Positions 3,372 to 18,798 of a stretch of 64,000 bases of DNA are shown piece after piece (positions within the stretch are counted from its first letter, which is position 1; every line of letters begins with the position of its first letter). The DNA lies in NCBI GenBank assembly GCA_029564025.1, contig JAKQQT010000075.1:13185-77184 (forward strand), read 5' to 3'. A program made the translations under genes and the position numbers. This DNA is from Armatimonadota bacterium (GTDB lineage: Bacteria > Armatimonadota > DTGP01 > JAKQQT01). The notes beneath the pieces are model-generated. The model did not search any database, had not been told where the DNA came from, and worked only from the letters and a program-made list of their open reading frames with translations.

Positions 3372-5038
3372 CATCCGCCGGGAACACCATTTCCTCTCCA
3401 CCCGAACCCGGTGCCGCGAACCGGGAGTGGCGCGCTGTTCTGCTCCTTCTGTTGCTGACCATCGCGGTATGGATTCCCTATCGCCATACGATGCGGTACA
3501 TGGCGCTGAAAGACCCTGACGCGCAGGACTACGCCCAGATTGCCCGCAATGTCTATGAAGGACAGGGATTCAAGACCGACGTAATGCCGCTCTGCGGCCT
3601 GGTATGGCGTCAGGAAACCGGTCGGCAAGGTGCCCCCTGGTGGAACGTTCACCGTTTCCCGTTCCCATCGGCTGTCCAGGCGGCTCTGTTTCACATCATC
3701 GGGCCTACCGATCTGGCGGTCAGCCTTTCATCCGCCCTGTTCTTCTTCGCGACGATACCTCTATTGTTCGCGTTCGCGCGCAGGCTGTTCCCGTTCCGCG
3801 TCGCCTTTCTGGCAACCTTCCTGTTCGCCTTGTCCGGAGGCGAGTTCAAGACGTCCATCTCGGGATTGACCGAACCGGCGGCTATCTTCTTCTTTCTGGC
3901 AACTCTTTATCTGGTTGTGTGGCCGAGGGGTTCGTGGAGTTACGGTCTTGCCGGCGCGCTGACGGGAGTCGCTTTTCTGAACCGTTACAGCATTGTGCTG
4001 TACGCCCTCCCCCTTCTGTTCTGGATCTTCAAAACCTCCAAACGACCGTATTTGCATCTCGCAAGTTTCATACTTCCGGCGGCGATTGTGGTCGCACCGT
4101 GGCTTGTGCGAACGTACCTTATCGCCGGCGACCCGTTGTTCTCCCTGACATCGGCACTCATGGCGCGGTACCTCTCGCTGGCAAGTCCCCGAACCCATGA
4201 CTGGTACCAGTTCGTGTACGTAAAACCTTCGGAATTCTGGCTGGGGCATCCGGGCTGGACCTTGTTGAAATGGGTCAAGATGACCGCCGACCTGTGGTGG
4301 TTTAAAATCACCACCATCGGAACGATGGGTTGGCTATTCACCTTCTTCGTCGTCGACATCCTGAGGCCGTACAACGGACTCGCCGCCCGTTTGCGAAGGT
4401 TTCTGCTGGCCACGTTCTTCCTGCACTTTCTGACGTTCGGCCTGCTCTCGAACATCGCGCGGTATTATGCGGTCTTCACGCCGTTTCTGTATCTCTTCGC
4501 GGCGGACGCAATCGTCTGGATAATCGCGGCTCTCCACCCCACCTTAACGAAGGGTCAAAAGTGGATGGCGTTGTTTTTCCTCGTGCCGATGCTGTTCAAG
4601 TGGGCCACCATAGCCGGGCCTCCGGAACGGCCGAAAGAACACGACACCTGGGTGGAGTGGCAACCCGACAACCAGAAGTGGATCCGCGAGAATACACCGG
4701 CAGATGCTCTGATCGTCAGCGATGTCCCGTGGAGTGTCGCCTGGTTCGCGGACCGGCGATCCGTACCGATTCCGCCAACCCCGGACGACATGAACCGCTT
4801 CCGGGAATTCAACCTTCAACCGGACGGAATCTACCTGATGTCCCCGCACCTGCGCATGGGTGTTCCTGAAGGCTGGGATAAATGGCGCGAAGTCCGGTTC
4901 GGAGGGACAACCATCCCGGGCTACCGGGTCGCGGCCGTCCTCAAGGGCCAGGCCGTGTACTTGGAGCGCATCCCCGCCTCGCAACGGCTGGCCGGACAGG
5001 CGTTATCCCGCGCCCGTGAAAAATTACCCTTAAAATGA
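3368..5038 (+). CDS. ArnT/PMT-like GT-C membrane glycosyltransferase (GT39/GT83-like)
   Basis: About 12 predicted TM helices. The N-terminal loop motif DAQDYAQIARNVYEGQGF is typical of dolichyl/undecaprenyl-phosphate-sugar dependent GT-C enzymes, and there is a soluble C-terminal domain. The start ATG 3368 overlaps the methyltransferase stop (ATGA); the longer ORF from 3221 is rejected. Confidence 0.7.
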   Translation: MTSAGNTISSPPEPGAANREWRAVLLLLLLTIAVWIPYRHTMRYMALKDPDAQDYAQIARNVYEGQGFKTDVMPLCGLVWRQETGRQGAPWWNVHRFPFPSAVQAALFHIIGPTDLAVSLSSALFFFATIPLLFAFARRLFPFRVAFLATFLFALSGGEFKTSISGLTEPAAIFFFLATLYLVVWPRGSWSYGLAGALTGVAFLNRYSIVLYALPLLFWIFKTSKRPYLHLASFILPAAIVVAPWLVRTYLIAGDPLFSLTSALMARYLSLASPRTHDWYQFVYVKPSEFWLGHPGWTLLKWVKMTADLWWFKITTIGTMGWLFTFFVVDILRPYNGLAARLRRFLLATFFLHFLTFGLLSNIARYYAVFTPFLYLFAADAIVWIIAALHPTLTKGQKWMALFFLVPMLFKWATIAGPPERPKEHDTWVEWQPDNQKWIRENTPADALIVSDVPWSVAWFADRRSVPIPPTPDDMNRFREFNLQPDGIYLMSPHLRMGVPEGWDKWREVRFGGTTIPGYRVAAVLKGQAVYLERIPASQRLAGQALSRAREKLPLK

Positions 5039-5055
5039 AGGTAAACGTTTTCCTT

Positions 5056-5071
5056 TGGCCCGTTTCTTGCT
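5056..5071 (+). promoter_or_regulatory. Candidate sigma-54 (-24/-12) promoter for the PEP-CTERM gene
   Basis: TTGGCCCGTTTCTTGCT versus consensus YTGGCACG-N4-TTGCW. GG (5057-5058) and GC (5069-5070) have the canonical 12-nt register, with one mismatch (A->C in the -24 box). It lies 61 nt upstream of ATG 5131, which has a GAAGGAGG SD. rpoN and an NtrC-type activator are present in the window. Confidence 0.55.
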
Positions 5072-5130
5072 GTAGATTGAAGGTGAATCACCTGCCGGGC
5101 ACGGCAGGAAAGAAGGAGGCAAGTAAGCTT

Positions 5131-5883
5131 ATGTTACGTAAACTTCTGCCGATCGTCGCACTGCTGGGCATCGTTACAGCGGCGTATGCTCAGGATATCC
5201 GAGCGATTCCGCGCATGTGGAACGATGTACCGACCTCCGAACTGTCCTGGTACAAGGGTGGAGACACAATCGGTTTCTCCGACCAGAAGTTGAGCGCTCC
5301 CACAGGCTGGGCCAACCGCCACGATTGGCGGCTGACGAATCCGGACGGGTCGCCTCTTCTGATCGGACCCACTGATTACTTCATGCTGGAAATGGACATC
5401 ACCTCCTATGGTCCTGCCGCGCACGAAGCCGGCCTCATCACCATAGGCGGACCGCCGATGGACTGGGCGGACGGGCGCATCATGGTCCGGCCGTCTGACG
5501 GCGAAGTGTCCTGCTGGGGCGGGGTCTCGCCGTTCTATATGTTCGGCAAAAATATGTATTCGACCGGCGTAACCGCGCATGTCGGACTGTTGTACACCAA
5601 CGAGGGCGGCCTGAACGGCGTGCACTATATGTACAACGGAATTGACAGCGGCTTCCTGCCGTTCACCAACCTGGAGCAGGGGCTCTTCCCCAACACCCAG
5701 ATTGGCGGATACTTCCAGGCGCTCAACAATCCGAACAACCCGGATAACGGCGCCGCTATCGTATTCAGCAACATCCGGTTCAACGGCCAACCTATCAGCG
5801 CGGCCTCCATACCGGAGCCCGGCTCCCTGGCACTGCTCGGGACCGGACTGGCGGGCCTTTTAGGTCTCCGCCGTCGACGCTGA
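5131..5883 (+). CDS. PEP-CTERM sorting-domain protein (secreted, exosortase substrate candidate)
   Basis: The C-terminus IPEPGSLALLGTGLAGLLGLRRRR* has the PEP motif, a TM helix and an Arg cluster. N-terminal signal peptide MLRKLLPIVALLGIVTAAYAQ. The body is unrecognised and beta-rich-looking. The start ATG 5131 is preferred over ORF start 5035 on SD and signal-peptide grounds. Confidence 0.85.
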   Translation: MLRKLLPIVALLGIVTAAYAQDIRAIPRMWNDVPTSELSWYKGGDTIGFSDQKLSAPTGWANRHDWRLTNPDGSPLLIGPTDYFMLEMDITSYGPAAHEAGLITIGGPPMDWADGRIMVRPSDGEVSCWGGVSPFYMFGKNMYSTGVTAHVGLLYTNEGGLNGVHYMYNGIDSGFLPFTNLEQGLFPNTQIGGYFQALNNPNNPDNGAAIVFSNIRFNGQPISAASIPEPGSLALLGTGLAGLLGLRRRR

Positions 5884-6997: not shown

Positions 6998-8599
6998 ATG
7001 GACAGTAGAGAAGGCTTCTGGAGGAAACCTGCCAACACCGTTCTGTTTGTGATCAGCGTCCTGGCGCTGGGAATTTCACTGGCGGCCTTGTTCCGCTCCG
7101 ATCCGGTTTCCATGGTCTCCGCGCAGCAGTCGGCTCTGACGCCCAACCAGAAACAGGCGCTGATTTCCATGCAGGACGGTTTCGCGGCGATCGCGGAAGC
7201 GGTGGAGCCTTCCGTCGTTCGTATCGAAGCCATCACACGAGCGACCGAGTCGACCGCCAAAGCCGACAGAGGCGAATCCTCTCCTGAAGGCACACTGGTG
7301 ATTCCCAATCCGTTCGACCTGTTCCGCCAGAACCCGACCATCCCGCAGATTCCAACGCCGCAGGGTGCCAGCACCGGCAGTGGTCTGCTGGTCAAAGTTG
7401 ACGGCAAAACAACGTATATCCTGACCAACAACCACGTGGTCGACAATGCCAACGTAATTCGCGTTTACCTGGCCGGGCAGGACAGGAACAGCGTGGTCGG
7501 CAAACTGGTTGGCCGCGACGACAAGTCGGACCTTGCGGTCATCAGCATCCGGACTCCCGCCGGCGTAACGGCCTCCACCTTGCCGAAACTGGGTGATTCT
7601 TCCAAAATCCGCGTCGGGCAGTGGGCCATCGCCATCGGCAACCCGTTGGGTGTTGGTGAAACGCTGACCGTTGGAGTCATCAGCGCCACCCGCCGCGAGC
7701 TAAACCGAGTGGAAGGTATTCGCGACTACCGCGACATGATCCAAACGGACGCCTCCATCAATCCGGGCAACTCGGGCGGTCCGTTGGTGAATATCCACGG
7801 CGAGGTGATTGGTATCAACACGGCGATAGCCAGTTCCACGCGGGGAAGCATTGGACTCGGATTTGCTATTCCAATCAACGCCGCCCGGGCGATAATGAAC
7901 GAAATAATCGAGCACGGCGCCGTGGTGCGCGGATATCTCGGCGTTCAAACATCCAACCAGAACCGGGTGTTGGACGAGGATCTCAAGAAGTTCTACGGCG
8001 TTCAGCACGGCGCCCTTGTTGAGATGGTGAATCCGGATACACCCGCCGCGAAGGCAGGCATCAGGCCGGAAGACGTGATTATGTTCTGGAACAACCAGAA
8101 GATCGAGGATTTTGACGGACTCGAAGCGGCCGTAACCGGCACTCCGCCCGGACGCCAGATTCCGGTCAAGCTGATGCGCAATGGAAAACAGGTGACCGTA
8201 ACGGTTACAACAGCCAAGCGTCCCAGCGAAAGCGATCTGCTTGCTTCCGGCGGCTCGGGAGCTGTCGAACCCGAGGAAGACAATAAAGAGTCGGTTCTCG
8301 GCGGAATGGGCATGACCGTCTCGCCGTTGCGCCCGGCCGATGCCAAGGCGTTGAACATCGATGAGAATATTAAGGGTGTTCTGGTTACCAAGGTTGATTT
8401 TGGTGGTCCGGCGGATATGGCGGGTCTGACCCGGGGAACCCTGATCCTGCGCGTCGGCCGCACGGAAACGCCCACGGTGAAGGAGTTCCGCGAGGCGACC
8501 AAGGACCTGAAACCCGGCGATTCCGTAATCCTTCAGATCAACCGGCCGGTATCCGCCAATCAGCGGTCCAATGCCATCACCAAACTGACGCTGGAGTAA
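6998..8599 (+). CDS. HtrA/DegP-family periplasmic serine endoprotease with two PDZ domains
   Basis: N-terminal TM/signal. Trypsin-fold triad contexts LTNNHVV, SDLAVISI and TDASINPGNSGGPLVN, followed by two PDZ-like segments. Strong SD AGGAGGAG upstream. Confidence 0.9.
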   Translation: MDSREGFWRKPANTVLFVISVLALGISLAALFRSDPVSMVSAQQSALTPNQKQALISMQDGFAAIAEAVEPSVVRIEAITRATESTAKADRGESSPEGTLVIPNPFDLFRQNPTIPQIPTPQGASTGSGLLVKVDGKTTYILTNNHVVDNANVIRVYLAGQDRNSVVGKLVGRDDKSDLAVISIRTPAGVTASTLPKLGDSSKIRVGQWAIAIGNPLGVGETLTVGVISATRRELNRVEGIRDYRDMIQTDASINPGNSGGPLVNIHGEVIGINTAIASSTRGSIGLGFAIPINAARAIMNEIIEHGAVVRGYLGVQTSNQNRVLDEDLKKFYGVQHGALVEMVNPDTPAAKAGIRPEDVIMFWNNQKIEDFDGLEAAVTGTPPGRQIPVKLMRNGKQVTVTVTTAKRPSESDLLASGGSGAVEPEEDNKESVLGGMGMTVSPLRPADAKALNIDENIKGVLVTKVDFGGPADMAGLTRGTLILRVGRTETPTVKEFREATKDLKPGDSVILQINRPVSANQRSNAITKLTLE

Positions 8600-8619
8600 C
8601 CGTACTCCGGACGGCTACG

Positions 8620-8661
8620 GCCCGGCGGCGAACACAAGGCTTCTCCGCCGGGCTTCTTTTT
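8620..8661 (+). terminator. Rho-independent terminator after htrA
   Basis: GCCCGGCGG (8620-8628) / CCGCCGGGC (8645-8653) stem, followed by TTCTTTTT. Confidence 0.75.
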
Positions 8662-8700
8662 ACCCCGGAAAGTTTTCACGGCATACCGGTGAGTGCTAGC

Positions 8701-8781
8701 ATGTTGGTGATGTTACTCACTTGGAACACCTCTGTCCGTCGTCGTTCGCGTCGCGATATTCCGCGGATCTTTCCCGCGTAA
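8701..8781 (+). CDS. Putative Arg-rich leader peptide (26 aa) of the arg operon
   Basis: ATG TTG GTG ATG TTA CTC ACT TGG AAC ACC TCT GTC CGT CGT CGT TCG CGT CGC GAT ATT CCG CGG ATC TTT CCC GCG TAA translates to MLVMLLTWNTSVRRRSRRDIPRIFPA. A GGTGAG SD-like element lies 7 nt upstream. Five Arg codons fall within six codons, immediately upstream of argB and of a terminator hairpin. It is too short to appear in the ORF track. Confidence 0.5.
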   Translation: MLVMLLTWNTSVRRRSRRDIPRIFPA

Positions 8782-8826
8782 CAGCCGCGCGACCGGAACG
8801 GTCGTTCCAGCGCCCGAATGTTATGA

Positions 8827-8867
8827 GCCGCGGGGAGCCTTCAAAAGCCCCGCGGCCTTATTATTTC
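8827..8867 (+). terminator. Attenuator-type terminator hairpin immediately upstream of argB
   Basis: GCCGCGGGG (8827-8835) / CCCCGCGGC (8848-8856) form a 9-bp all-GC stem, followed by CTTATTATTTC. It ends 14 nt before the argB ATG. Upstream CCGCGG/CCCGCG segments can compete for the 5' arm. Confidence 0.55.
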
Positions 8868-8880
8868 ACACCGAACACGG

Positions 8881-9747
8881 ATGCCGTCAGCTGAAACCGA
8901 AAACCAGGATTTCCATCGCCGCGCGGAGCGGCGGCTCGCCGATCACCCCGACTGCACGATTGTCGTGAAGTACGGCGGAAACGCCATGATCGATACCGAT
9001 CTCAAGCGTGCGCTGATGGGCAACCTGGTACTGCTCAACCGCGCGGGATTCCGGATCGTTCTGGTCCACGGTGGCGGCCCGGACATCAGTTTGGCCTTGA
9101 AGCGAATGGGCAAGGAATCCGTGTTCGTTCACGGACTGCGCGTAACCGACGCGGAGACGATGGAGATCGTGGAGATGGTGCTTGCCGGCAAAACGAACAA
9201 GGGACTTGTCAGCGACCTCCACGTTGCCGGCGCCAAGGCTGTCGGGCTCAGCGGGAAGGACGGGCGCCTGCTGGAGGCCGAAAAACAGTTGTCGCGCGGC
9301 ATCGACGTCGGTTTCGTCGGCGCGGTAACGAAGGTGAATTGCGGCATACTCAACACACTGATAGGAGCCGGTTACATTCCTGTGATTTGCAGTGTGGCGG
9401 ATGACGGAGCGGGACAGACGCTGAACATCAACGCCGATCACGCGGCGGGCTACATTGCCGCCGCTTTGAAGGCTGACGAGTTGCTGTTGCTGACCGATGT
9501 GGCCGGTGTGATGGAAGATCCAGGCCAACCCGACAGCCTGCTTAACCGCATGAACGCGGCCAGTGCTCGTGATATGCTTGCGACCGGTAAGGCCGACAAG
9601 GGGATGATACCGAAACTGGAAGCCTGCCTTACCGCGCTGGAGGGTGGTTGCCGGGCTGTACAGATTCTGGACGGGCGCGTTCCGTCCGCCGTGCTGAACC
9701 ACTTGCTGGGTGATGAACCGACGGGAACATCCGTCACGCTGGAGTAA
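8881..9747 (+). CDS. argB: Acetylglutamate kinase
   Basis: VVKYGGNAM, VLVHGGGPDI, GLRVTD, LNINADHAAG and a C-terminal IPKLEA..GG..V.ILDG are typical ArgB motifs. Confidence 0.9.
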   Translation: MPSAETENQDFHRRAERRLADHPDCTIVVKYGGNAMIDTDLKRALMGNLVLLNRAGFRIVLVHGGGPDISLALKRMGKESVFVHGLRVTDAETMEIVEMVLAGKTNKGLVSDLHVAGAKAVGLSGKDGRLLEAEKQLSRGIDVGFVGAVTKVNCGILNTLIGAGYIPVICSVADDGAGQTLNINADHAAGYIAAALKADELLLLTDVAGVMEDPGQPDSLLNRMNAASARDMLATGKADKGMIPKLEACLTALEGGCRAVQILDGRVPSAVLNHLLGDEPTGTSVTLE

Positions 9748-9749
9748 AG

Positions 9750-10556
9750 ATGCCGGAACTGCCTGAAGTCGAAGGAATGAAACAGCGCCTGAACAAGATG
9801 GTTACCGGGCGCCTGATTAGCGATGTGCGCGACATTTCGGGTACAGCCACGCGTTCGACGGATGGAACACCGTTCCGCGATGCCGTCGTCGGCCTCGGTA
9901 TCACGGGATTCGACCGGCGGGCGAAGAATCTGCTCATATCCCTCTCGAACGGCGACGGTATCGTGATGCACTTTATGCGCGAGGGCATGCTGGAATACGC
10001 TCCCATCGGCGCCGAGTTGGGACCGCACACCCAGGCGGTTATGACGCTCGACAACGGACACGACCTTCGGTTGCGCGACACGATGCGGACCGCGCGCTGG
10101 ACGCTCTGCCCCGGAAACGACACGTCCAAAGTGTCGACTATGCAGAAACTGGGGCTTGAGTATACGGACGCGGCGTTCACACCTGATTATCTTAAGGTAA
10201 GGCTCGATAAAAAGTCGCCGCTCAAGGCCCTGCTGGTGGACCAGTCTGTGATTGCGGGAATCGGTAATGCTTACGCTCACGAGATCGCATTCGAAGCCGG
10301 CATCAGACCGGATCGCGCGGGCAACTCGTTATCAGGCGACGAAATTGTTCGGGTTCATCGGGCAATCGGTCTTGTTTTCGACCGCGCAATCGCCGCGCGG
10401 GTGGCCTCGACGTTGAGCATCATGGGCGATGAAGGCTGGGAAGTGGCCCGCATCCACCGCCGCAAGGGCCAACCCTGCCCCGTTTGCGGCACGGCGCTAC
10501 TCGGGGAAAAACTGGGCGGAAACCTGATGTACTACTGCCCGACCTGTCAGCACTGA
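9750..10556 (+). CDS. mutM: Formamidopyrimidine-DNA glycosylase (Fpg/Nei family)
   Basis: N-terminal MPELPEVE (catalytic Pro2/Glu3), H2TH region IAGIGNAYAHEI, C-terminal zinc finger CPVCG...YYCPTCQ. Confidence 0.8.
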   Translation: MPELPEVEGMKQRLNKMVTGRLISDVRDISGTATRSTDGTPFRDAVVGLGITGFDRRAKNLLISLSNGDGIVMHFMREGMLEYAPIGAELGPHTQAVMTLDNGHDLRLRDTMRTARWTLCPGNDTSKVSTMQKLGLEYTDAAFTPDYLKVRLDKKSPLKALLVDQSVIAGIGNAYAHEIAFEAGIRPDRAGNSLSGDEIVRVHRAIGLVFDRAIAARVASTLSIMGDEGWEVARIHRRKGQPCPVCGTALLGEKLGGNLMYYCPTCQH

Positions 10557-10587
10557 CGGGCGAAACTATACGGAGGACGGAAACGAT

Positions 10588-11814
10588 ATGCCGGAAAACG
10601 CGGCAAACGGATGGACATCGGAACAGATCATCGCGATGGACAAGGCCTATGTGATGGGCACTTACGGACGCGCGCCCGTTGCTTTCGTCCGCGGCGAGGG
10701 AATGTACCTGTGGACGGCGGAGGGTGAACGTTTCCTGGATATGGTCAGCGGCGGAAGAGCCGGTTGCGGCCTCGGCCACTGCCACCCGAAGGTCACCCGG
10801 GCTATCCAGGAACAGGCGGAAACCCTGGCCTTTGTCAGCAATGATTACTACTGCCCGACCCGCGCGGAACTGGCACGACGCCTGAGCGAGCGGACGCACG
10901 GCTACAAGGTGTTTTTTACGAACAGCGGCACGGAAGCCACCGAAGGCGCCCTGAAACTCGCGCGCAAGTGGTCGAAGAAGGCCAAGGGGCCTGAAGCCGT
11001 CGAGATTCTTACGGCCTACCAATCGTTCCACGGTCGCTCCTACGGCGCGATGAGCGCCACGGGACAGGCGAAGTTTCAGGAAGGTTTCGAGCCCATTTTG
11101 CCGGGCTTCCGGTATATGCGCTTCCTGGACCGACAGACCATCGTTCAGAAAATGCCGGACGAAACGTGCGCCGTGATGCTTGAGACGATTCAAGGCGAAA
11201 GCGGCGTCAATCCGGTGACTAAGGAATACATCCAGGACGTCCGTAAACTGACCGAAGAGAAGAACATCCTCCTGATTATGGACGAGGTTCAGTGCGGTTT
11301 CGGCCGGACGGGCCGGTTCTGGTGCTACGAGCACTTTGACATCCAGCCGGACATCGTGACTCTGGCAAAGTCGCTTGGCGGCGGCCTCAGCGTTGGTGTC
11401 GTGCTTGCCCGTCCCGACGTCGCGGAAGCGTTTGGTCCCGGCACGCACGGCAGTACCTTCGGCGGGAATCCACTGGGAACCGCCGCGGCACTGGCGGCCA
11501 TGAACACACTGGAAGAAGAAAATCTGATTCAAAACGCGGCGGATATGGGCGATTACTTCCGGCGCGGACTGGCAACCTTGAAGCGTAACGGAAGACCGAT
11601 CCAACTGACGCGCGGCCTCGGCCTGATGATTGGCGTTCAGTTGACAGCGCCGATTGCGGCCCAGGTTGCGATGCGCTGTCTTGAGATGGGACTGCTGATT
11701 CACAACGTGGGCGACAGCGTCCTGCGGATTCTGCCTGCAATGGTTGCGAAGGCCGAACACATCGATGAAGCGCTGGGCATTCTGGACAAGAGCCTGGCAA
11801 TATCAAACCCTTAA
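10588..11814 (+). CDS. argD: Acetylornithine aminotransferase (class III PLP aminotransferase)
   Basis: NSGTEA, DEVQCGFGRTG, LAKSLGGG (PLP Lys) and GSTFGGNPL, plus arg-operon context. Confidence 0.85.
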   Translation: MPENAANGWTSEQIIAMDKAYVMGTYGRAPVAFVRGEGMYLWTAEGERFLDMVSGGRAGCGLGHCHPKVTRAIQEQAETLAFVSNDYYCPTRAELARRLSERTHGYKVFFTNSGTEATEGALKLARKWSKKAKGPEAVEILTAYQSFHGRSYGAMSATGQAKFQEGFEPILPGFRYMRFLDRQTIVQKMPDETCAVMLETIQGESGVNPVTKEYIQDVRKLTEEKNILLIMDEVQCGFGRTGRFWCYEHFDIQPDIVTLAKSLGGGLSVGVVLARPDVAEAFGPGTHGSTFGGNPLGTAAALAAMNTLEEENLIQNAADMGDYFRRGLATLKRNGRPIQLTRGLGLMIGVQLTAPIAAQVAMRCLEMGLLIHNVGDSVLRILPAMVAKAEHIDEALGILDKSLAISNP

Positions 11815-11828
11815 GGATTTCAAATAAA

Positions 11829-13793
11829 ATGTGGGAAAAATTCACGGAAAGAACCAGACGAATTATATACCGGGCCCAGGAGGAGGCGCACCGGTACGGA
11901 CACCCCAATGTGGGGACCGAGCACCTGCTCCTGGGTATTCTGGACGAACCCGATTCCATGGCGGCACGGGTACTGGAGACGCTGGCCGGAAGCCTGGACA
12001 GCATCCGATTGAGTACCGTCAGCGGCCTGCCCGCCGGCTCCAAAAATCCGGCCACCAAGATCGGCCGAACCCGAAGCGCCCGCCGCGTGCTGGAACTGGC
12101 CGAGGACGAAGCAACACAGCAAGGTGCCGATCATATTGCCAGCGGGCACCTGCTGGTCGGCCTGGTGCGGTGCCGGGAAGGCGGAGCCGCTCATATCCTT
12201 GAGAACTGCTCGGTGGTTCTGCCGGCCGTGCGCGCCGAGATTACGGCGGAACTGACCGGCCAGAACGGCTCCAACCGCGGAGAAGACGCCCGCCTGGACG
12301 AACACTCCACGCTGAAGTCATTACCGCCTCTTGTTCGAAGCGCGCTGGGCCACACGTGGCGCCATATGTCGTACCGCTCCCGAAGGGCTATCGAAGCCGC
12401 CTTGAGCGAAGCCGCGCAACGAGGCGACACACTGGTCACCCCGGACTATCTGGTCCTGGGCGCTCTGAAGGATTCCGACAGCGCCGTTGCGCGCGTTTTC
12501 CGCCGAATGGAAGTCGATGTCAAAGCACTTGTCGATGACATCAAGGCTTCCCTGAAAAGTCACGGCGAACCGCGCAAGGTCGACCGGCATATGGAACTGC
12601 GCGCCACCACATGCGCCGCGATATCAGACGCCGAAATGGCCGCGCGCGTCGACGGCACCGGAGTGATCGGAACGGCGCATCTCGTGATGGGCGTGCTGAC
12701 ACTCAAGGACTCCAACGCCGCCGCCGTACTGAAAAAGCACCAGGTTAATCTCGCGACCCTGCGCTCTCTGTACATCGAATTGCACGAGAACGACAGCAAG
12801 GCATCGGCGGATCCCGACCAGTTGTCCAAACTCACGCTTTCGCAGATGATCTCGCGAAGCCGCCTGAAGGGCAAGCACCTTTTGCGCATCAGCGACCTGA
12901 CGCCGGCAGACGTCGCTCTCGTGTTCGCCGTAACCGACAAACTGAAAAGCCGCAAGGGACGCGGCGGAGCGGACGAAGCCTCTGCCCTGCACCGCGGCAA
13001 GACACTGGCGCTTGTTTTCCAGAAACCGTCGCTCAGAACGCGCGTGACATTCGAAATCGGTATGAACCAGTTGGGCGGCCATGCCCTTCACCTTGGCCCG
13101 GACGAAATCGGCGTCGGCGAGCGCGAATCCCCGGCGGATGTCGCCCGCAACCTGGAACGCTGGGTGCACGGCATCGTTGCGCGGACCTTCAAACATTCCT
13201 TGGTTGAGGAACTCGCCGCCAATTCCACCATACCGGTCATCAACGGCCTCAGCGACCTGGAGCATCCGTGCCAGGCTCTGGCGGACCTGTACACCCTGCG
13301 CGAACGCAAAGGCGCCGTCAAGGGACTGACGCTGATGTACATCGGAGACGGCAACAACGTGTGCCGCTCGCTCATGGAACTCTGCGCGCTCACCGGAACG
13401 AATCTTCGCATCGCCTCTCCGGAAGGCTACGAGCCCGACGCAACAGCCGTGGCGGCTTTGAAACCGGTGTTTGAGGCGGCAGGCGCCGAGCTATGGGTGG
13501 GCCGCGATCCCATCGAGGCCGCCAAGGGCTCCGATGCGGTTTACACCGATGTCTGGACCAGCATGGGCCAGGAAGAGGAAGCCGCAATTCGCCATGCGGC
13601 CTTCCAGCCGTACCAGTTGAACATGAAGGTCGTCAACGCGGCGAATCCGGAAGCCATTGTCCTTCACTGCCAGCCGGCGCACCGTGAAGAGGAGATTACC
13701 TCCGAGGCGATGGACTGCCCGACCAGCGCGATCTTCGACCAGGCCGAGAACCGCATGCACGTTCAAAAAGCGCTGATGGCGCTTATGCTGTAA
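11829..13793 (+). CDS. argF: Fusion protein: two tandem Clp N-terminal (Clp_N) modules + ornithine carbamoyltransferase
   Basis: aa 1-145 form a Clp_N double repeat: MWEKFTERTRRIIYRAQEEAHRYGHPNVGTEHLLLGIL closely mirrors the clpC N-terminus in this window. aa ~182-320 form a second, more diverged double repeat (VTPDYLVLGAL, IGTAHLVMGVL). aa ~346-654 are an OTCase with SLRTR, HPCQALADL, DVWTSMG and HCQP motifs. Confidence 0.85.
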   Translation: MWEKFTERTRRIIYRAQEEAHRYGHPNVGTEHLLLGILDEPDSMAARVLETLAGSLDSIRLSTVSGLPAGSKNPATKIGRTRSARRVLELAEDEATQQGADHIASGHLLVGLVRCREGGAAHILENCSVVLPAVRAEITAELTGQNGSNRGEDARLDEHSTLKSLPPLVRSALGHTWRHMSYRSRRAIEAALSEAAQRGDTLVTPDYLVLGALKDSDSAVARVFRRMEVDVKALVDDIKASLKSHGEPRKVDRHMELRATTCAAISDAEMAARVDGTGVIGTAHLVMGVLTLKDSNAAAVLKKHQVNLATLRSLYIELHENDSKASADPDQLSKLTLSQMISRSRLKGKHLLRISDLTPADVALVFAVTDKLKSRKGRGGADEASALHRGKTLALVFQKPSLRTRVTFEIGMNQLGGHALHLGPDEIGVGERESPADVARNLERWVHGIVARTFKHSLVEELAANSTIPVINGLSDLEHPCQALADLYTLRERKGAVKGLTLMYIGDGNNVCRSLMELCALTGTNLRIASPEGYEPDATAVAALKPVFEAAGAELWVGRDPIEAAKGSDAVYTDVWTSMGQEEEAAIRHAAFQPYQLNMKVVNAANPEAIVLHCQPAHREEEITSEAMDCPTSAIFDQAENRMHVQKALMALML

Positions 13794-13805
13794 TCTATCC
13801 AGCCG

Positions 13806-14312
13806 ATGACGGGTCGAGACGATACGTCGGAAATCATCCTGCGGCGGGCGACGTGGGCCGATGCCTACGCCATGATCGCCGTCACGCGCGCCGCGTTCAG
13901 CGTGTATGAAGGTTTCGATCCGCCGTTCGTCGCGCTTACGGAGACCGAGCAGGATGTCCGGTTGCAGATGTACCTCGGCGGCGCCGTGGTCGCCGTCAAG
14001 GGTTCAACCGTGGTCGGAGCGGCCCGGTACAAAGCCCTGGGAGACGGGCGTCTGCTGTTTTACCGGCTCGCCGTGCACCCGGACTGGCAGAGGCGCGGAC
14101 TGGCGGCCCGGTTGCTGAACTGGACCGACAGCGCCGCCATCCGGCTTCATTGCGACGAGGTGATTTTGTACGTGCGGAAGCAGTTTGACCGTCATATTGC
14201 CCTTTACGAACGGTGCGGATTCCGTATCATCACGGACGATACACCAACCATAAACTACAACGTTTACGTCGCGATGGCGCGACCCGTAATCAAAGAGAGG
14301 AACCACCATTGA
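13806..14312 (+). CDS. GNAT family N-acetyltransferase (single domain)
   Basis: Acetyl-CoA motif A context RLAVHPDWQRRGLAARLL. 168 aa. The stop overlaps the argG TTG start (TTGA). Confidence 0.75.
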   Translation: MTGRDDTSEIILRRATWADAYAMIAVTRAAFSVYEGFDPPFVALTETEQDVRLQMYLGGAVVAVKGSTVVGAARYKALGDGRLLFYRLAVHPDWQRRGLAARLLNWTDSAAIRLHCDEVILYVRKQFDRHIALYERCGFRIITDDTPTINYNVYVAMARPVIKERNHH

Positions 14313-15499
14313 ACCAGGTTGTACTGATTTACTCCGGCGGACTGGACACATCCGTCTGTATCCCGATGATGACCGAGGACTACGGTTTTGATCACATCGT
14401 CACCGTGACTGTCGATGTCGGCCAGCCGGAAGAAGACATCACGATGGCCGCCGAGAAGGCCGCCAGATTTGGAACCGAGCACTACACAGTGGACGCCAAG
14501 GACGAGTTCGCGCGCGACTACTGCTTCCCCGCCGTTCGCGCCAACGCAATGTACCAGGGAGGCTATCCGGTTTCCACCAGTATCGCCCGCCCCCTGATCG
14601 CCCTAAAGGCGGTTGAGGTCGCGCAGAAGGTGGGCGCCAAGGCGTTCGCCCACGGTTGCACCGGCAAGGGGAACGACCAGTTGCGCATCGAGTTCATCGT
14701 CCGCACCCTCCTGCCCGATGCCCGGATCGTCGCCCCCATGCGCGAGAAGAACATGACGCGCACCGAGGAAATCGAATACGCCCGCGTCAAGAACGTCCCG
14801 ATCGGACAGAGCGCCGAGAAGATCTGGTCGATCGACGAGAACCTGTGGGGCCGCTCCATCGAGGGCGGACGCCTGGAGGAACCGGACTTCGCGCCGCCGG
14901 AGGAGATTTTCCGCTGGACTGCGGGCCCGCAGGAAGCCCCGAACACACCGGAGACCGTGGTGGTCCGCTTCGAAAACGGCAACCCCGTGGCCATCAACGG
15001 CAAGTCGATGGATCCGCTGACCCTGATTCGCGAGGCGCACAACCTGGCCGGCAAGAACGGCGTGGGACGCATCGACGTGATGGAAGACCGGATGCTGGGT
15101 CTGAAGGTCCGCGAGAACTACGAATGCCCTGCCGCAATCCTGCTTTATACGGCTCACGCGGCTCTGGAAGCCCTTGTGTTCACCAAGGACGAGCGCGACT
15201 TCAAGCGCGTGGTGGACGCCAAGTGGGCGGACCTCGCCTACGCCGGACTGTGGATTGACCCGCTGAAACACGACTTGGACGCTTTCATCGACAAGACACA
15301 GGAACGTGTAACCGGCGAGGTGATCCTGCGCCTGTTCAAAGGCGGTATCTCCGTGATCGGGCGAAGAAGCCCGTTCGCGCTTTACAATGAGGACCTGGCT
15401 TCGTTCGACAGTAAGACCTGGGACCAGCGCGATGGAGAAGCCCTGTGCAAAGCCTACGGAATGCAGGCGCGGATGGCCGCGCAGTTGAACATCGGCTGA
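14309..15499 (+). CDS. argG: Argininosuccinate synthase
   Basis: VVLIYSGGLDTS (N-type ATP pyrophosphatase P-loop), AHGCTGKGNDQ, ENLWGRS. The start is set at in-frame TTG 14309 (AGAGAGGA SD); the longer ORF from 14213 overlaps the GNAT gene. Confidence 0.9.
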   Translation: MNQVVLIYSGGLDTSVCIPMMTEDYGFDHIVTVTVDVGQPEEDITMAAEKAARFGTEHYTVDAKDEFARDYCFPAVRANAMYQGGYPVSTSIARPLIALKAVEVAQKVGAKAFAHGCTGKGNDQLRIEFIVRTLLPDARIVAPMREKNMTRTEEIEYARVKNVPIGQSAEKIWSIDENLWGRSIEGGRLEEPDFAPPEEIFRWTAGPQEAPNTPETVVVRFENGNPVAINGKSMDPLTLIREAHNLAGKNGVGRIDVMEDRMLGLKVRENYECPAAILLYTAHAALEALVFTKDERDFKRVVDAKWADLAYAGLWIDPLKHDLDAFIDKTQERVTGEVILRLFKGGISVIGRRSPFALYNEDLASFDSKTWDQRDGEALCKAYGMQARMAAQLNIG

Positions 15500-15516
15500 C
15501 CGGATTGCGAAAACGC

Positions 15517-17376
15517 ATGCTGATGACCGCGGCCGCACTGGCCGCGGCCGTCTGCGTGTCCACGCCGGCGCCGGCAGTTTCGCCGGATCCGGCCCTCCCA
15601 ATCCTCAAGCGTGTTGTTACCGCGGCCAACGAAAGCCGGCGGTCCGACGCCGCGTCTGCCGCGATTACGAAGGACGCAAGGGTCTTCGGATGGATTCCGG
15701 AAGAGCCCAGCATGTTCGGCGCCGTGATGCGCCCCACTCCCTGGGCAGTCGCCACGCTCAAGCCGCCCTTCACCAACACCCGCACGCGCCTCGCCGTGTT
15801 CCACACCTACCACGGACCCGAATCCGACGGCGATCACATCCACCCACTGGTGGAAACCGCGTCCGGGTGGCGGTTGATGCGCGAGATTCCCGAAACCGAC
15901 ACGCAAGGCTACCGGATCACCGCGCACAATCTGCGAATCCGCATTCTGCCGAAATCCAACAGCCTGCGAGCGGTTGATACTCTGGCTATCCGAAGAACCG
16001 GCGCTTCCCAACAGTGCGCCTTTGTGCGGATATCAAACGATTTCACGGTCCGCTCAATCAGAACCGCAACCGGAAAGCAGGTTCCGTTCCTTCAGGCGGG
16101 AGGCATCGTTTCGGTGCGCGTGCCGGCCGGCGATTCCGTAACCCTGACGTTCACTTACGACGGCAAGGTGTCGCACTCGATGATGAGCGACATCTCTCCC
16201 GAAGTAGCGGCGCTGAACGCATACCACTGGCCGCACCTGGGGCGCCTGCCCGCCACGACGAACACCACCGTCATTGTTCCGGCAAACTGGACCGCGATTA
16301 CTCAAGGCGAACTGGTTTCGAAGACCACGCAAGGCGCGGACAGCGCCTTCGTGTACGACAACAGGATTCCGGTGAACTACCAGTCGATCTGCGCCGGACC
16401 CTACGTCGAACGTTCGATGAAGCACGGGCGGCTGACCCTGTATACATATCTTCTGAACGATCAACCGGAGTTCTCCCAGTCCCTGCTGGAAGTCCTTGCC
16501 AAGGCAATGGACTACTATGAGCAACGCTTTGGACCGTATCCCTATACCCGGTACTCCCTCGTGGACGGAGGGAAACCGCTGGGTTTCGTCGCGCTTGAGG
16601 GATACAGCATGGCCTCGTACGGTTCGGTTCTGCTGACCCCGGCGATCATCGCGCACGAGTTGTCGCACACATGGTGGGGCGGCGTCGCCCCGAACACCTA
16701 TCTACGCTCGTGGTGGAATGAAGCCTTCGCCAGCTACTCGGACGATTCATTCTCCCGCTTCCGCAACGGAATCACAACGCCGCATCCGTCCGACCGGCGC
16801 TGGTGGCCGTTAACCAGTTCCGTGTCGGATTACCCGCTGTCGGAGGCGAGGCACTACGCAACGGACATCAACGGTCTTGCCTACCAGAAGGGTATGGTGG
16901 TTCTTCGTCTGCTCGAACTTCGCCTTGGGGCGGACAAGTTTGATGAGAGCGCCCGCGAGTTCCTGCAAACAGCCCGCAACCAGCCAGATCCCGGCTGGAA
17001 GGAATTCCAGAAGGCTGTTGAGAAGATAACAGGCGAGAACTGGGACTGGTTCTTCCGCCAGTGGGTGGAACGCGCAGGCTGGCCCGAACTGCGCTTGAGG
17101 CAGGCTCGCGTGACGGGCGACGCGGCGAACGGCTTCACGGTTACGGCACGCCTCGGACAAACGGCGCCGTATTACAGGCTGGAGGTTCCGGTCCGTCTCG
17201 TCACGGACGGACCGCCGGTTGATGTGATCATACCATTGACCGGCGGAACCGCGCCGGTTTCGTTCGAAACCAGGGACAAACCCCTCCGCATCGTTGTGGA
17301 TCCCGAGTTCACCATTCCGCGCGACCTGGGTCAAAACGACACCGATCGGGGCGACGCCGTTCTCATAAAACAGTAA
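15517..17376 (+). CDS. M1-family-like zinc metallopeptidase (aminopeptidase N-like), secreted
   Basis: HELSHTWWG...WWNEAFASY gives HEXXH plus a downstream Glu, with 17 rather than the canonical 18 residues between. No canonical GAMEN motif (GYSMA at that position). Signal-like N-terminus MLMTAAALAAAVCVSTPAPA. Start ATG 15517 or 15523. Confidence 0.7.
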   Translation: MLMTAAALAAAVCVSTPAPAVSPDPALPILKRVVTAANESRRSDAASAAITKDARVFGWIPEEPSMFGAVMRPTPWAVATLKPPFTNTRTRLAVFHTYHGPESDGDHIHPLVETASGWRLMREIPETDTQGYRITAHNLRIRILPKSNSLRAVDTLAIRRTGASQQCAFVRISNDFTVRSIRTATGKQVPFLQAGGIVSVRVPAGDSVTLTFTYDGKVSHSMMSDISPEVAALNAYHWPHLGRLPATTNTTVIVPANWTAITQGELVSKTTQGADSAFVYDNRIPVNYQSICAGPYVERSMKHGRLTLYTYLLNDQPEFSQSLLEVLAKAMDYYEQRFGPYPYTRYSLVDGGKPLGFVALEGYSMASYGSVLLTPAIIAHELSHTWWGGVAPNTYLRSWWNEAFASYSDDSFSRFRNGITTPHPSDRRWWPLTSSVSDYPLSEARHYATDINGLAYQKGMVVLRLLELRLGADKFDESAREFLQTARNQPDPGWKEFQKAVEKITGENWDWFFRQWVERAGWPELRLRQARVTGDAANGFTVTARLGQTAPYYRLEVPVRLVTDGPPVDVIIPLTGGTAPVSFETRDKPLRIVVDPEFTIPRDLGQNDTDRGDAVLIKQ

Positions 17377-17391
17377 TCCAAGGAGACAACT

Positions 17392-18798
17392 ATGGCATCG
17401 AAGATGTGGGGTGGGCGCTTCCAGGGAGGCGCGGATACACTTGCCCTTCAGTACGGCGCAAGCCTGCCGTTTGACCGCCGTCTGACGATATACGAACTTA
17501 CCGCCAGCACAGCGCACGTTCAGATGCTCGGCGAGCAGGGCATACTGGAAGAGCGCGAGGTGGCCGAAATTGTGGACGCGCTCGGGCGCCTGGGCGTGGA
17601 GTATGCCGACGGACGATTCCCGAAGGAGCCGGCAGAGGATATCCATACAGCCGTCGAGAACTACCTGACGAAACTAATTGGCCCTGTCGCCGGCAAGTTG
17701 CACACAGCCCGAAGCCGGAACGACCAGGCGGCAACGGATCTGCACCTCTATGTCCTGGATTACGGCACCCGAATCGGACACACGATTCGCGACTTGCAGG
17801 GTGCGCTGGTCGAACTTGCGGAACAACACGTCGATACCATCATGCCCGGCTTCACGCACCTGCAACCCGCCCAGCCCGTCAGCCTCGCGCACCATCTGCT
17901 GGCCTACTTCTGGATGATGGAACGCGACGCGGGACGCCTGCATGACTGCCTGAACCGGTCTGCCCAATGCCCGCTGGGCGCCGCCGCGCTGGCCGGCACT
18001 TCGTTCCCGATCGACCGCCAGGCCGTGTCCGACGAGCTCGGATTCGATGCTCCCTACCCTAACAGCCTCGATGCCGTCAGCGACCGCGATTTTGCCGTGG
18101 AACTCGTTTCCTTCGCTTCGATCTGCATGGCCCACCTGTCGCGCCTGTGCGAAGAGATGATCATCTGGTCCTCGCCGCAGTTCGGTTTCATGGAAATCGC
18201 CGACGCCTACGCGACCGGTAGCAGTATCATGCCGCAGAAGAAGAATCCCGACCTTTGCGAATTGATTCGCGGCAAGACGGGACGCGTGTACGGCGACCTT
18301 CAGGGCCTGTTGACGATGTTGAAGGGCACGCCGCTGGCCTACAACAAGGACTTCCAGGAGGACAAGGAAGCCGTTTTCGATGCCGTGGACACGCTTCTCC
18401 CGGCGCTGACCCTGATGGAATCCATGCTCCGCACCGCTACATGGAAGCCGGAACGGATGCGCGAGGCCGCGGAACTTGGCTTTCCCACGGCCACGGACGT
18501 CGCCGATCACCTCGCGTCGCGCGGCCTGCCGTTCCGCGAGGCGCATGAAATCGTAGGCAAGCTTGTGCGTCTGTGCATCGAGCGAAACTGCGCTCTATCC
18601 GAGATCAGCGCAACGGAACTGAGGGGCTTCTCCGGCTACTTTGACGCGGATTACACGGCGCCTTCGGTTGATGAAAGCCTGGCCGCGCGGACCAGTTACG
18701 GAGGAGCCGCGCCCAGCGCCGTCCAAGCGCAGTTGGAGGAGGCAAAAGCAATCGTTAAGGCGGCTGAAGAAGCGGCGACCGAACCGGACGAATCCTGA
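17392..18798 (+). CDS. argH: Argininosuccinate lyase
   Basis: MWGGRF N-terminus, TARSRNDQ, GFTHLQPAQP and the fumarate-lyase signature GSSIMPQKKNPD. Confidence 0.9.
   Translation: MASKMWGGRFQGGADTLALQYGASLPFDRRLTIYELTASTAHVQMLGEQGILEEREVAEIVDALGRLGVEYADGRFPKEPAEDIHTAVENYLTKLIGPVAGKLHTARSRNDQAATDLHLYVLDYGTRIGHTIRDLQGALVELAEQHVDTIMPGFTHLQPAQPVSLAHHLLAYFWMMERDAGRLHDCLNRSAQCPLGAAALAGTSFPIDRQAVSDELGFDAPYPNSLDAVSDRDFAVELVSFASICMAHLSRLCEEMIIWSSPQFGFMEIADAYATGSSIMPQKKNPDLCELIRGKTGRVYGDLQGLLTMLKGTPLAYNKDFQEDKEAVFDAVDTLLPALTLMESMLRTATWKPERMREAAELGFPTATDVADHLASRGLPFREAHEIVGKLVRLCIERNCALSEISATELRGFSGYFDADYTAPSVDESLAARTSYGGAAPSAVQAQLEEAKAIVKAAEEAATEPDES

Follow-up and report, generated by a model that had tools for sequence, protein, structure and literature searches.

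A predicted ribosome-mediated arginine attenuator in the argB leader of an Armatimonadota lineage

The arginine biosynthesis cluster encoded in a 64,000-nucleotide stretch of contig JAKQQT010000075.1 from an Armatimonadota bacterium (the whole of this stretch is referred to below as the window) appears to be headed by a ribosome-mediated, that is, leader-peptide, transcription attenuator that likely senses the supply of charged tRNA-Arg. The candidate element lies between htrA and argB and combines a short, Arg-rich open reading frame (ORF) with RNA segments that can form either an intrinsic terminator or an alternative structure incompatible with it. An attenuator of this kind had been proposed for the gap in a sequence-only reading, and the comparison with related loci supports it: the small ORF, its run of Arg codons and the alternative stems are all kept in 12 distinct sequences, with the identity of the associated ArgB proteins going down to 63%.

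Architecture and conservation of the argB leader

The relatives were collected by an ArgB protein search, which yielded homologs with 93%, 71%, 68% and 63-65% identity, the flanking sequences coming from ten contig look-ups. The resulting comparison set consists of the window, L060 and L161-L177, altogether 19 loci with 12 distinct sequences and ArgB proteins 63-93% identical to that of the window. The best named ArgB relatives, among the matches listed, belong to Armatimonadota metagenome-assembled genomes, and in the scans of genome and metagenome contigs the closest ArgB among the matches listed is 63% identical. The entire architecture, namely a promoter, an Arg-rich ORF, a spacer and a GC-rich hairpin followed by a U-rich tail, is found 5' of argB in the window and in the 18 related loci, and the gene order argB-fpg-argD is kept. 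Within a single sequence, the element exceeds chance only weakly; it is the conservation across lineages that lifts it above chance. The features of the element in the window are as follows (the designations 1:2, 2:3 and 3:4 denote pairing between the respective regions).

8675-8680, plus strand: -35-like hexamer TTCACG, the best-scoring -35, 16 nt upstream of the -10 (consensus match only)
8694-8702, plus strand: extended -10, TGc-TAGCAT, ending 7 nt before ATG 8710 (consensus match)
8710-8781, plus strand: putative leader ORF of 23 codons and TAA, peptide MLLTWNTSVRRRSRRDIPRIFPA, ATG invariant in the 12 sequences
8737-8754, plus strand: putative control codons CGT CGT CGT TCG CGT CGC, five Arg in six codons (read from the sequence)
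8762-8766, plus strand: region 1, CGCGG, 5' strand of the 1:2 hairpin, pairs with 8774-8778 (alternative CGCG at 8752-8755)
8770-8783, plus strand: region 2, UUUCCCGCG (8770-8778) with the stop UAA and CA, pairs with region 1 or region 3
8786-8816, plus strand: spacer stem-loop within the antiterminator domain, core GGAAC 8795-8799 with GUUCC 8804-8808
8819-8837, plus strand: region 3, UGUUA (8819-8823) and CGCGGGGAG (8829-8837), pairs with region 2 and overlaps the 5' arm of the terminator
8827-8856, plus strand: terminator hairpin (3:4), nine G-C pairs and a 12-nt loop, -19.4 kcal/mol, GCCGCGGGG 8827-8835 with CCCCGCGGC 8848-8856
8857-8867, plus strand: U-rich tail CUUAUUAUUUC (read from the sequence)
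8881-18798, plus strand: presumed regulated cluster, with NCBIfam matches to argB, mutM/fpg, argD, a fusion of two Clp_N repeats with argF, GNAT, argG, an M1-peptidase-like protein and argH

The leader ORF was originally delineated from ATG 8701 to TAA 8779-8781, with the peptide MLVMLLTWNTSVRRRSRRDIPRIFPA. The reading frame holds but the start does not: the codon at 8701 is ATA in L161, the locus with the ArgB 93% identical to that of the window, and the conserved start, retained in L161, is ATG 8710. The upstream, in-frame ATG 8701 was accordingly rejected as the start. The GGTGAG motif (8689-8694) that had been taken for a Shine-Dalgarno site fares no better because it is located in the promoter spacer, between the -35 and the extended -10.

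The Arg run CGT CGT CGT TCG CGT CGC at 8737-8754 is present exactly as described, and a sixth Arg codon of the leader, CGG, is located at 8764-8766. Four of these six codons are CGT, which had been judged by eye to be a minority Arg codon; the counts from nine window genes bear this out, with CGT accounting for 10.7% of the Arg codons against 50% for CGC. Altogether, Arg takes up 6 of the 23 leader codons, compared to 6.5% of the codons in the window genes, and the leaders of the relatives contain 4-8 Arg codons among their 20-22 codons.

The length of the ORF varies narrowly, between 20 and 23 codons across the 12 distinct sequences, and is exactly 22 codons in nine relatives. In these nine, codons 2-9 vary at all three codon positions without a single insertion or deletion, and the stop occupies one fixed column while being TAG in five sequences, TAA in two and TGA in two. 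The conserved Arg and Pro codons show synonymous variation (CGC/CGT/CGA and CCC/CCG/CCT, respectively). All 12 peptides end in Pro-Ala-stop, and this ending together with the Arg content is all that is common to the 12: the peptides of the relatives have RRPRRRSR..RPA in common, whereas the window peptide resembles them little beyond its Arg content and the PA end. This pattern of variation suggests that the leader is conserved as an ORF, with its start, frame, length and stop under selection. The predicted leader peptides are listed here by locus.

Window and L161: MLLTWNTSVRRRSRRDIPRIFPA
L060: MNASRNSQPRRPRRRSRHTRPA
L162: MPVSALNPGRRPRSRSHTPCPA
L167: MPVSALNPGRRPRRRSHTPCPA
L164: MKMLLPVSRPRRRNPRLCPA
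L170: MEMKTASPSRRPRRRSRTIRPA
L171: MVFSITSLSRRPRRRSRTIRPA
L173: MAYVRASLVRRPRRRSRQARPA
L174: MAYVHSSWARRPRRRSRPERPA
L176: MQTYQANPVSRPRRRSRSKRPA
L177: MQTLEAYSIRRPRRGSHRQRPA

The predicted promoter is likewise conserved. The -10 has the form TAnnnT in all 12 distinct sequences and is directly preceded by TGC, yielding an extended -10, in 10 of them; a motif at the -10, GTGCTAGCAT, is common to the window and L060. In the relatives, the -35 is TTGACT, TTGACA or TTGCCT, and the spacer between the two hexamers is 16-19 nt long across the whole set. The distance from the end of the -10 to the invariant ATG is only 7-10 nt in all 12 sequences, so that the transcription start is expected at the ATG or within a few nucleotides of it, and no Shine-Dalgarno-like purine tract is found between the -10 and the ATG in any of these sequences. 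Most likely, then, the leader ORF is leaderless and lacks a Shine-Dalgarno site, with transcription starting at or next to ATG 8710.

Alternative RNA structures and the predicted switch

The hairpin and the competing pairings that had been pointed out in the window are all found in the sequence. The all-GC, 9-bp hairpin 8827-8835/8848-8856 is followed by CUUAUUAUUUC ahead of argB; CGCGG at 8762-8766 can pair with CCGCG at 8774-8778; and, alternatively, UUUCCCGCG at 8770-8778 can pair with CGCGGGGAG at 8829-8837 (9 bp, including two G-U pairs). A simple consensus scan called no terminator in the leader region; the hairpin loop is 12 nt long, compared to a limit of 8 in the tool. The antiterminator of the window pairs CCCGCG-UAACA (8773-8783) with UGUUA (8819-8823) and CGCGGG (8829-8834), which means that the stop codon itself is paired. 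The 1:2 hairpin of the window has only 5 bp (8762-8766 with 8774-8778) and is located inside the footprint of a ribosome stalled at 8752-8754. The segment UUCCGCG (8759-8765), which includes most of region 1, can also pair with the 5' arm of the terminator because CCGCGG is palindromic, and this pairing is used in one constrained fold, with the ribosome at Arg codon 12; judging from this model, the window may have two ways to block the terminator.

The same set of structures is detected in the relatives. The terminator hairpin is present in all 12 sequences and is followed in the relatives by U-rich tails, such as UUUUUGCAUUU, UUUUCGCGUUUG and similar ones; the spacer hairpin is likewise found in every relative but differs in sequence between lineages. 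RNAalifold applied to the 12 sequences yields a 1:2 hairpin, in which the Arg codons CGC AGG of the relatives pair with their Pro-Ala codons CCU GCG, together with the 3:4 terminator. The isolated domain comprising regions 2 and 3 closes via the 2:3 helix around the spacer hairpin in all 12 sequences. The energies across the set are the following.

1:2 hairpin: -10 to -16 kcal/mol
Terminator (3:4): -16 to -19 kcal/mol
Region 2-region 3 domain: -19 to -33 kcal/mol

The effect of a ribosome was modeled by minimum free energy (MFE) folding of the RNA cut before the 3' arm of the terminator, with the ribosome footprint forced to remain unpaired and three Arg positions used for each sequence. When the footprint is placed on the Arg codons, the 2:3 helix appears in all sequences for at least one of the three positions; overall, it forms in about three quarters of the tests. 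When the footprint is placed on the stop codon, formation of the 2:3 helix is impossible. In the comparison with and without a ribosome, suggested earlier as a check on the switch, the RNA without a ribosome adopts the 1:2 hairpin in the relatives, but in the window the 2:3 helix forms even without one.

The capacity to pair is highly conserved in the alignment. In the columns assigned to the 2:3 helix, 97.6% of the cells can pair, compared to 33-48% when the partners are slid by 1-3 columns; for the 1:2 hairpin and the terminator taken together, the value is 97%. Columns 66-145 of the 2:3 helix contain U-A in nine sequences, C-G in two and U-G in one, and columns 46-66 of the 1:2 helix contain A-U in nine sequences, G-C in two and G-U in one. 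The relatives have A in region 1, U in region 2, A in region 3 and either U or a bulge in region 4, whereas G, C, G and C are found at these sites in the window and L161; all four segments changed together in the lineage that includes these two. Two relatives contain what look like wobble intermediates: in L171, a G in region 3 is opposite the U of region 2, and in L177, a G in region 1 is opposite U. The latter change turns an Arg codon, AGG, into the Gly codon GGG. Five relatives have the region 3 A bulged out of the terminator hairpin and yet paired in the antiterminator, which is hard to account for without the 2:3 helix.

A control directed at the pairing partner adds support. A 7-mer fully complementary to the region 3 core ends directly before the stop in 9 of the 10 sequences tested, with none in L162. 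This stop-adjacent 7-mer is the only upstream match in eight relatives; the window contains a second one at 8759-8765. Shuffled sequences place a 7-mer site at this position in 0.35-1.3% of the cases for seven of the eight relatives; for L171 and the window, the share is 3-6%.

At the sequence level, the elements are present, conserved and able to pair, and from this we infer the remaining steps of the mechanism, as follows. The RNA would begin about 7 nt past the extended -10, with the A of ATG 8710 or an adjacent nucleotide, and the mRNA from which the leader ORF is translated would accordingly be leaderless. As long as Arg-tRNA is abundant, the ribosome would pass the Arg codons and reach the stop, where it would cover region 2 (8770-8783), or else region 2 would pair again with region 1 behind the ribosome. 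Region 3 would be left free, allowing the hairpin 8827-8856 to form, and transcription would end near 8860-8868. When Arg-tRNA is scarce, the ribosome is expected to stall with one of the Arg codons of 8737-8754 in the A site, so that region 1 is covered and region 2 is not. Region 2 could then pair with the emerging region 3, closing a domain of about 60 nt; no terminator would form, and the RNA polymerase would read into argB and probably on to argH.

Alternative explanations and relationship to known systems

Several observations weigh against the attenuator interpretation. The 12 sequences all come from one clade and hence are not independent. Formal covariation amounts to one pair per helix, attributable to one event in a single lineage, without significance in the shuffle controls; there is little of it because the helices hardly vary and most columns are constant. 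The expectation that the folding energy of 8690-8880 would stand out from shuffled controls was not borne out (z = -1.67, with 12 of 200 shuffles as good), although this test is low-powered because the sequence is GC-rich. The dinucleotide shuffles sequester the 5' arm of the terminator in 37-71% of the cases, and thus the MFE logic alone proves little in GC-rich RNA; furthermore, in the real sequences this arm is often partly paired without a ribosome. The default-off state of the window is less clear than that of the relatives because the 2:3 helix forms without a ribosome and the 1:2 hairpin is only 5 bp long. In addition, the U-tract of the terminator is interrupted, and a strict consensus scan called no promoter in the leader region. 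Finally, Arg-rich runs are frequent in the off-frames of the GC-rich window DNA: 46 runs with at least five Arg in six codons are found in the six frames of the 64 kb. For the plus strand of the 219-nt gap, the expectation is about 0.05.

The frequency of such runs, the unremarkable z-score and the readiness of shuffled sequences to sequester the terminator arm are all compatible with the ORF and the pairings having arisen by chance in intergenic DNA that is rich in GC and in CG dinucleotides and adjoins an ordinary terminator. This explanation is contradicted by the preservation of the architecture down to 63% ArgB identity while codons 2-9 and the spacer vary, and we consider it the least credible of those that were weighed. 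Only slightly more plausible, and still very improbable, is a constitutive arrangement without any arginine sensing, in which a promoter drives expression of a small Arg-rich peptide that has its own role, and the leakiness of the terminator determines how strongly argB is expressed. Small basic peptides do exist, but such an arrangement leaves unexplained the retained ability of the stop-adjacent segment to match the Arg-codon region as well as the 5' arm of the terminator, the joint change of four segments in the lineage of the window, and the placement of the element before the arginine cluster in every locus.

Control might also be exerted in trans, by a small ligand or a TRAP- or PyrR-type RNA-binding protein acting on the conserved GCCGCGG hairpin or the spacer domain, with the ORF being incidental. 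The spacer domain is structured in every sequence, and more distant argB loci of Armatimonadota contain a GCCGCGG..CCGCGGC hairpin with a T-run, which in the case of L094 is not preceded by an ORF. However, the ORF appears to be selected as an ORF, as indicated by its fixed length, the invariant ATG right after the -10, the three different stops at one column and the synonymous variation; the sequence of the spacer hairpin varies, unlike that of a ligand pocket; and there is no match in Rfam. We give this explanation the same slim chance as the constitutive one. A closer competitor, itself improbable, retains the RNA switch and replaces the sensor: the Arg-rich nascent peptide would arrest the ribosome near the stop upon binding of arginine or a related metabolite, as in TnaC, SpeFL or the fungal arginine attenuator peptide, and the arrested ribosome would cover region 2, favoring termination. 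The Pro-Ala-stop ending of all 12 peptides, the RRPRRRSR..RPA motif common to the relatives and the location of the stop codon inside the antiterminator fit this version. It is less compatible with the coincidence of the conserved codons with paired RNA (CGC AGG with CCU GCG), with the change from AGG (Arg) to GGG (Gly) in L177, which preserves the pairing at the expense of the residue, and with the small resemblance between the window peptide and those of the relatives beyond the Arg content and the PA ending. Sensing of charged tRNA-Arg by a ribosome translating the Arg codons thus remains the interpretation that we favor.

Such a control would be unusual for this pathway. Arginine biosynthesis is the textbook model of repression by ArgR/AhrC at ARG boxes, and the known cases of leader-peptide attenuation involve Trp, His, Leu, Ile/Val, Thr, Phe and a few others. 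Repression by ArgR/AhrC acts on the same target pathway and follows the same expected logic, being off at plentiful arginine, but employs a DNA-binding repressor and not an RNA switch. The lysine (aminoadipate pathway) leader-peptide attenuator of Thermus thermophilus is a case outside Proteobacteria and Actinobacteria, in a pathway with homologs of ArgB, ArgC and ArgD among its enzymes; it differs in having lysine codons and in belonging to another phylum, and is likened here by description only. The fungal arginine attenuator peptide, encoded by the upstream ORF of arg-2/CPA1, similarly represents an upstream ORF that controls an arginine-pathway gene by arginine, but it is found in eukaryotes, requires a particular peptide sequence, responds to free arginine and works at the level of translation. 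To our knowledge, that peptide's ORF resembles the element described here neither in sequence nor in RNA structure.

Searches for known RNA families produced no assignment. The whole window contains no match to Rfam at gathering thresholds, including the leader families His_leader, Leu_leader, Thr_leader and Trp_leader and the T-box. With permissive E-values, the region 8560-8960 yields only chance-level matches on the opposite strand, with the best E = 0.066. The best of these, to Ruegeria cis2 sRNA (8691-8788, minus strand), scores 19.7 bits against a gathering score of 50 and is taken to be due to chance. According to a comparative review (PMC1262725), control of arginine genes at the RNA level involves T-boxes only. 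In agreement with the earlier statement that no Arg-leader attenuator family is established, none of natural origin was found in the literature searched, although an earlier prediction in the attenuator survey of Lopatovskaya et al. 2010 is possible.

The element shares with the classical attenuators, that is, the enterobacterial trpL, hisL, leuL, thrL, ilvL/ivbL and pheL and the actinobacterial trp and leu leaders (PMC1262725, PMC3082878), a short ORF rich in codons for the end product, four segments with the 1:2/2:3/3:4 pairings, an intrinsic terminator ahead of the first structural gene and a stop codon beside region 2. It differs from them in that the amino acid is arginine, the host is Armatimonadota-like and no Rfam leader model matches; furthermore, the ORF is apparently leaderless, without a Shine-Dalgarno site, and in the relatives the control codons themselves make up region 1. 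The mycobacterial polycysteine leaderless ORFs of the 'Cys ribulon' (bioRxiv 10.1101/834739) likewise have a codon run for the amino acid of the operon in a short ORF that is leaderless, as is predicted for the argB leader ORF, and a stalled ribosome remodels the mRNA structure, as is proposed here. There, the output is translational, through the opening of a duplex that sequesters the downstream ribosome-binding site, whereas the terminator hairpin in the argB leader would be expected to give a transcriptional output. In Salmonella speF orf34 (PMC6386406) and Staphylococcus aureus rbfL (PMC13009471), ribosome pausing at Arg codons similarly reports the arginine supply and alters the fate of the downstream mRNA. 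These systems contain only two Arg codons and control polyamine synthesis and a biofilm regulator, respectively, via Rho, RNase G or occlusion of a ribosome-binding site; the element described here, in contrast, precedes arginine biosynthesis genes, contains 4-8 Arg codons and has an intrinsic terminator.

Gene neighborhood and distribution in the phylum

In the region 8400-9100, the last position of htrA is 8599, and the terminator of this gene (GCCCGGCGG...CCGCCGGGC TTCTTTTT) comes next, upstream of the leader element; the distance between the stop of the leader ORF (8710-8781) and the ATG of argB (8881) is 99 nt. The downstream genes, from argB to argH, are all on the plus strand and are tightly packed, and we infer that they are co-transcribed. 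The gene assignments, based on NCBIfam, are as follows.

8881-9747, plus strand: argB
9750-10556, plus strand: mutM/fpg
10588-11814, plus strand: argD
11829-13793, plus strand: 654-aa ORF containing two Clp_N repeats and ornithine carbamoyltransferase (argF)
13806-14312, plus strand: GNAT acetyltransferase, between argF and argG
14213-15499, plus strand: argG
15445-17376, plus strand: M1-aminopeptidase-like ORF, between argG and argH
17392-18798, plus strand: argH

The argF gene of this cluster encodes a fusion, with Clp_N repeats at amino acids 5-145 and 183-327 and a complete ornithine carbamoyltransferase at amino acids 346-654 of one 654-aa ORF. The same product, 654 aa long and with the Pfam domains Clp_N, OTCace_N and OTCace, is encoded in L161 (5449 onward). 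In the window and all the relatives L161-L177, the DNA repair gene mutM/fpg separates argB from argD. All of these relatives except L161 contain an extra ORF between fpg and argD, without a Pfam match and encoding 128-145 aa (92 aa in L166), that is absent from the window and from L161. Outside the cluster, the product of the ORF 5035-5883 (plus strand) carries a PEP-CTERM sorting signal at its C-terminus, which indicates that the organism has an exosortase system.

No argJ homologue was found in the window, and there are no tRNA genes in the 64 kb. The E. coli-type ARG box, TNTGAATWWWWATTCANW, has no matches in the window with up to three mismatches; the search covered this consensus, and a more divergent operator may be present. 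An ArgR-like signature motif is absent from the six-frame translation of the window, although this is a weak test.

Beyond the core relatives, the element was not found with a strict motif and the covariance model R1 in 160 other argB loci that were fetched (ArgB at most 58% identical). The best R1 scores among these 160 loci, for L116 (E = 0.0016) and L105 (E = 0.07), are unconvincing. Where ArgB is about 60% identical, the operon has the order argC-argJ-argB, and there is no leader before argB.

Several of the more distant loci contain arrangements that are reminiscent of the element. L105 (2282-2486) has a 44-codon ORF that is apparently leaderless and contains ERRFGRRVR, with the end of an extended -10, TGgTAAAAT, located 5 nt upstream of its ATG; after this ORF comes AAGCCGCGG..CCGCGGCUUUUU, 18 nt before argB. 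In the L019 locus (595-790), several Arg codons are present in an ORF that precedes a GCCGCGG-type hairpin, and a similar hairpin of this type follows a truncated, Arg-containing ORF in L116 (1-150). With short Arg-containing ORFs ahead of GCCGCGG..CCGCGGC hairpins that lead into T-runs, these look-alikes may represent a second, looser family of the same design. In 4 of the 152 non-core loci, the 400 nt preceding argB include a GCCGCGG-type hairpin with a T-run, compared to about 1.2-1.5 expected. A promoter-like site that runs directly into a GC-rich hairpin and a T-run, without an intervening ORF, is present in two loci: L094 (581-655), one of these four, with TTGACA-17-TATACT upstream of argB, and L178 (179-250), with TTGACC-17-TATAAT upstream of argJ-argB.

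Taken further, these findings can be read to mean that this is the first natural arginine-specific leader-peptide attenuator, that it is leaderless and provides the main, ArgR-independent control of the eight-gene cluster in this Armatimonadota lineage, and that looser relatives, such as L105, L019 and L116, occur more widely in the phylum. We advance this broader proposition tentatively, with the balance tilted slightly toward doubt. If a conserved Arg-codon attenuator is indeed at work, the class of leader-peptide attenuators would gain a new amino acid specificity, and the element would show how a core pathway is regulated in an almost unstudied phylum. It would also be a second example of a leaderless sensory ORF, after the Cys ORFs of mycobacteria, in this case coupled to an intrinsic terminator. 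The element is compact, about 160 nt, with the start codon, the Arg codons and regions 1-4 assigned, and might serve as an arginine-responsive genetic part.

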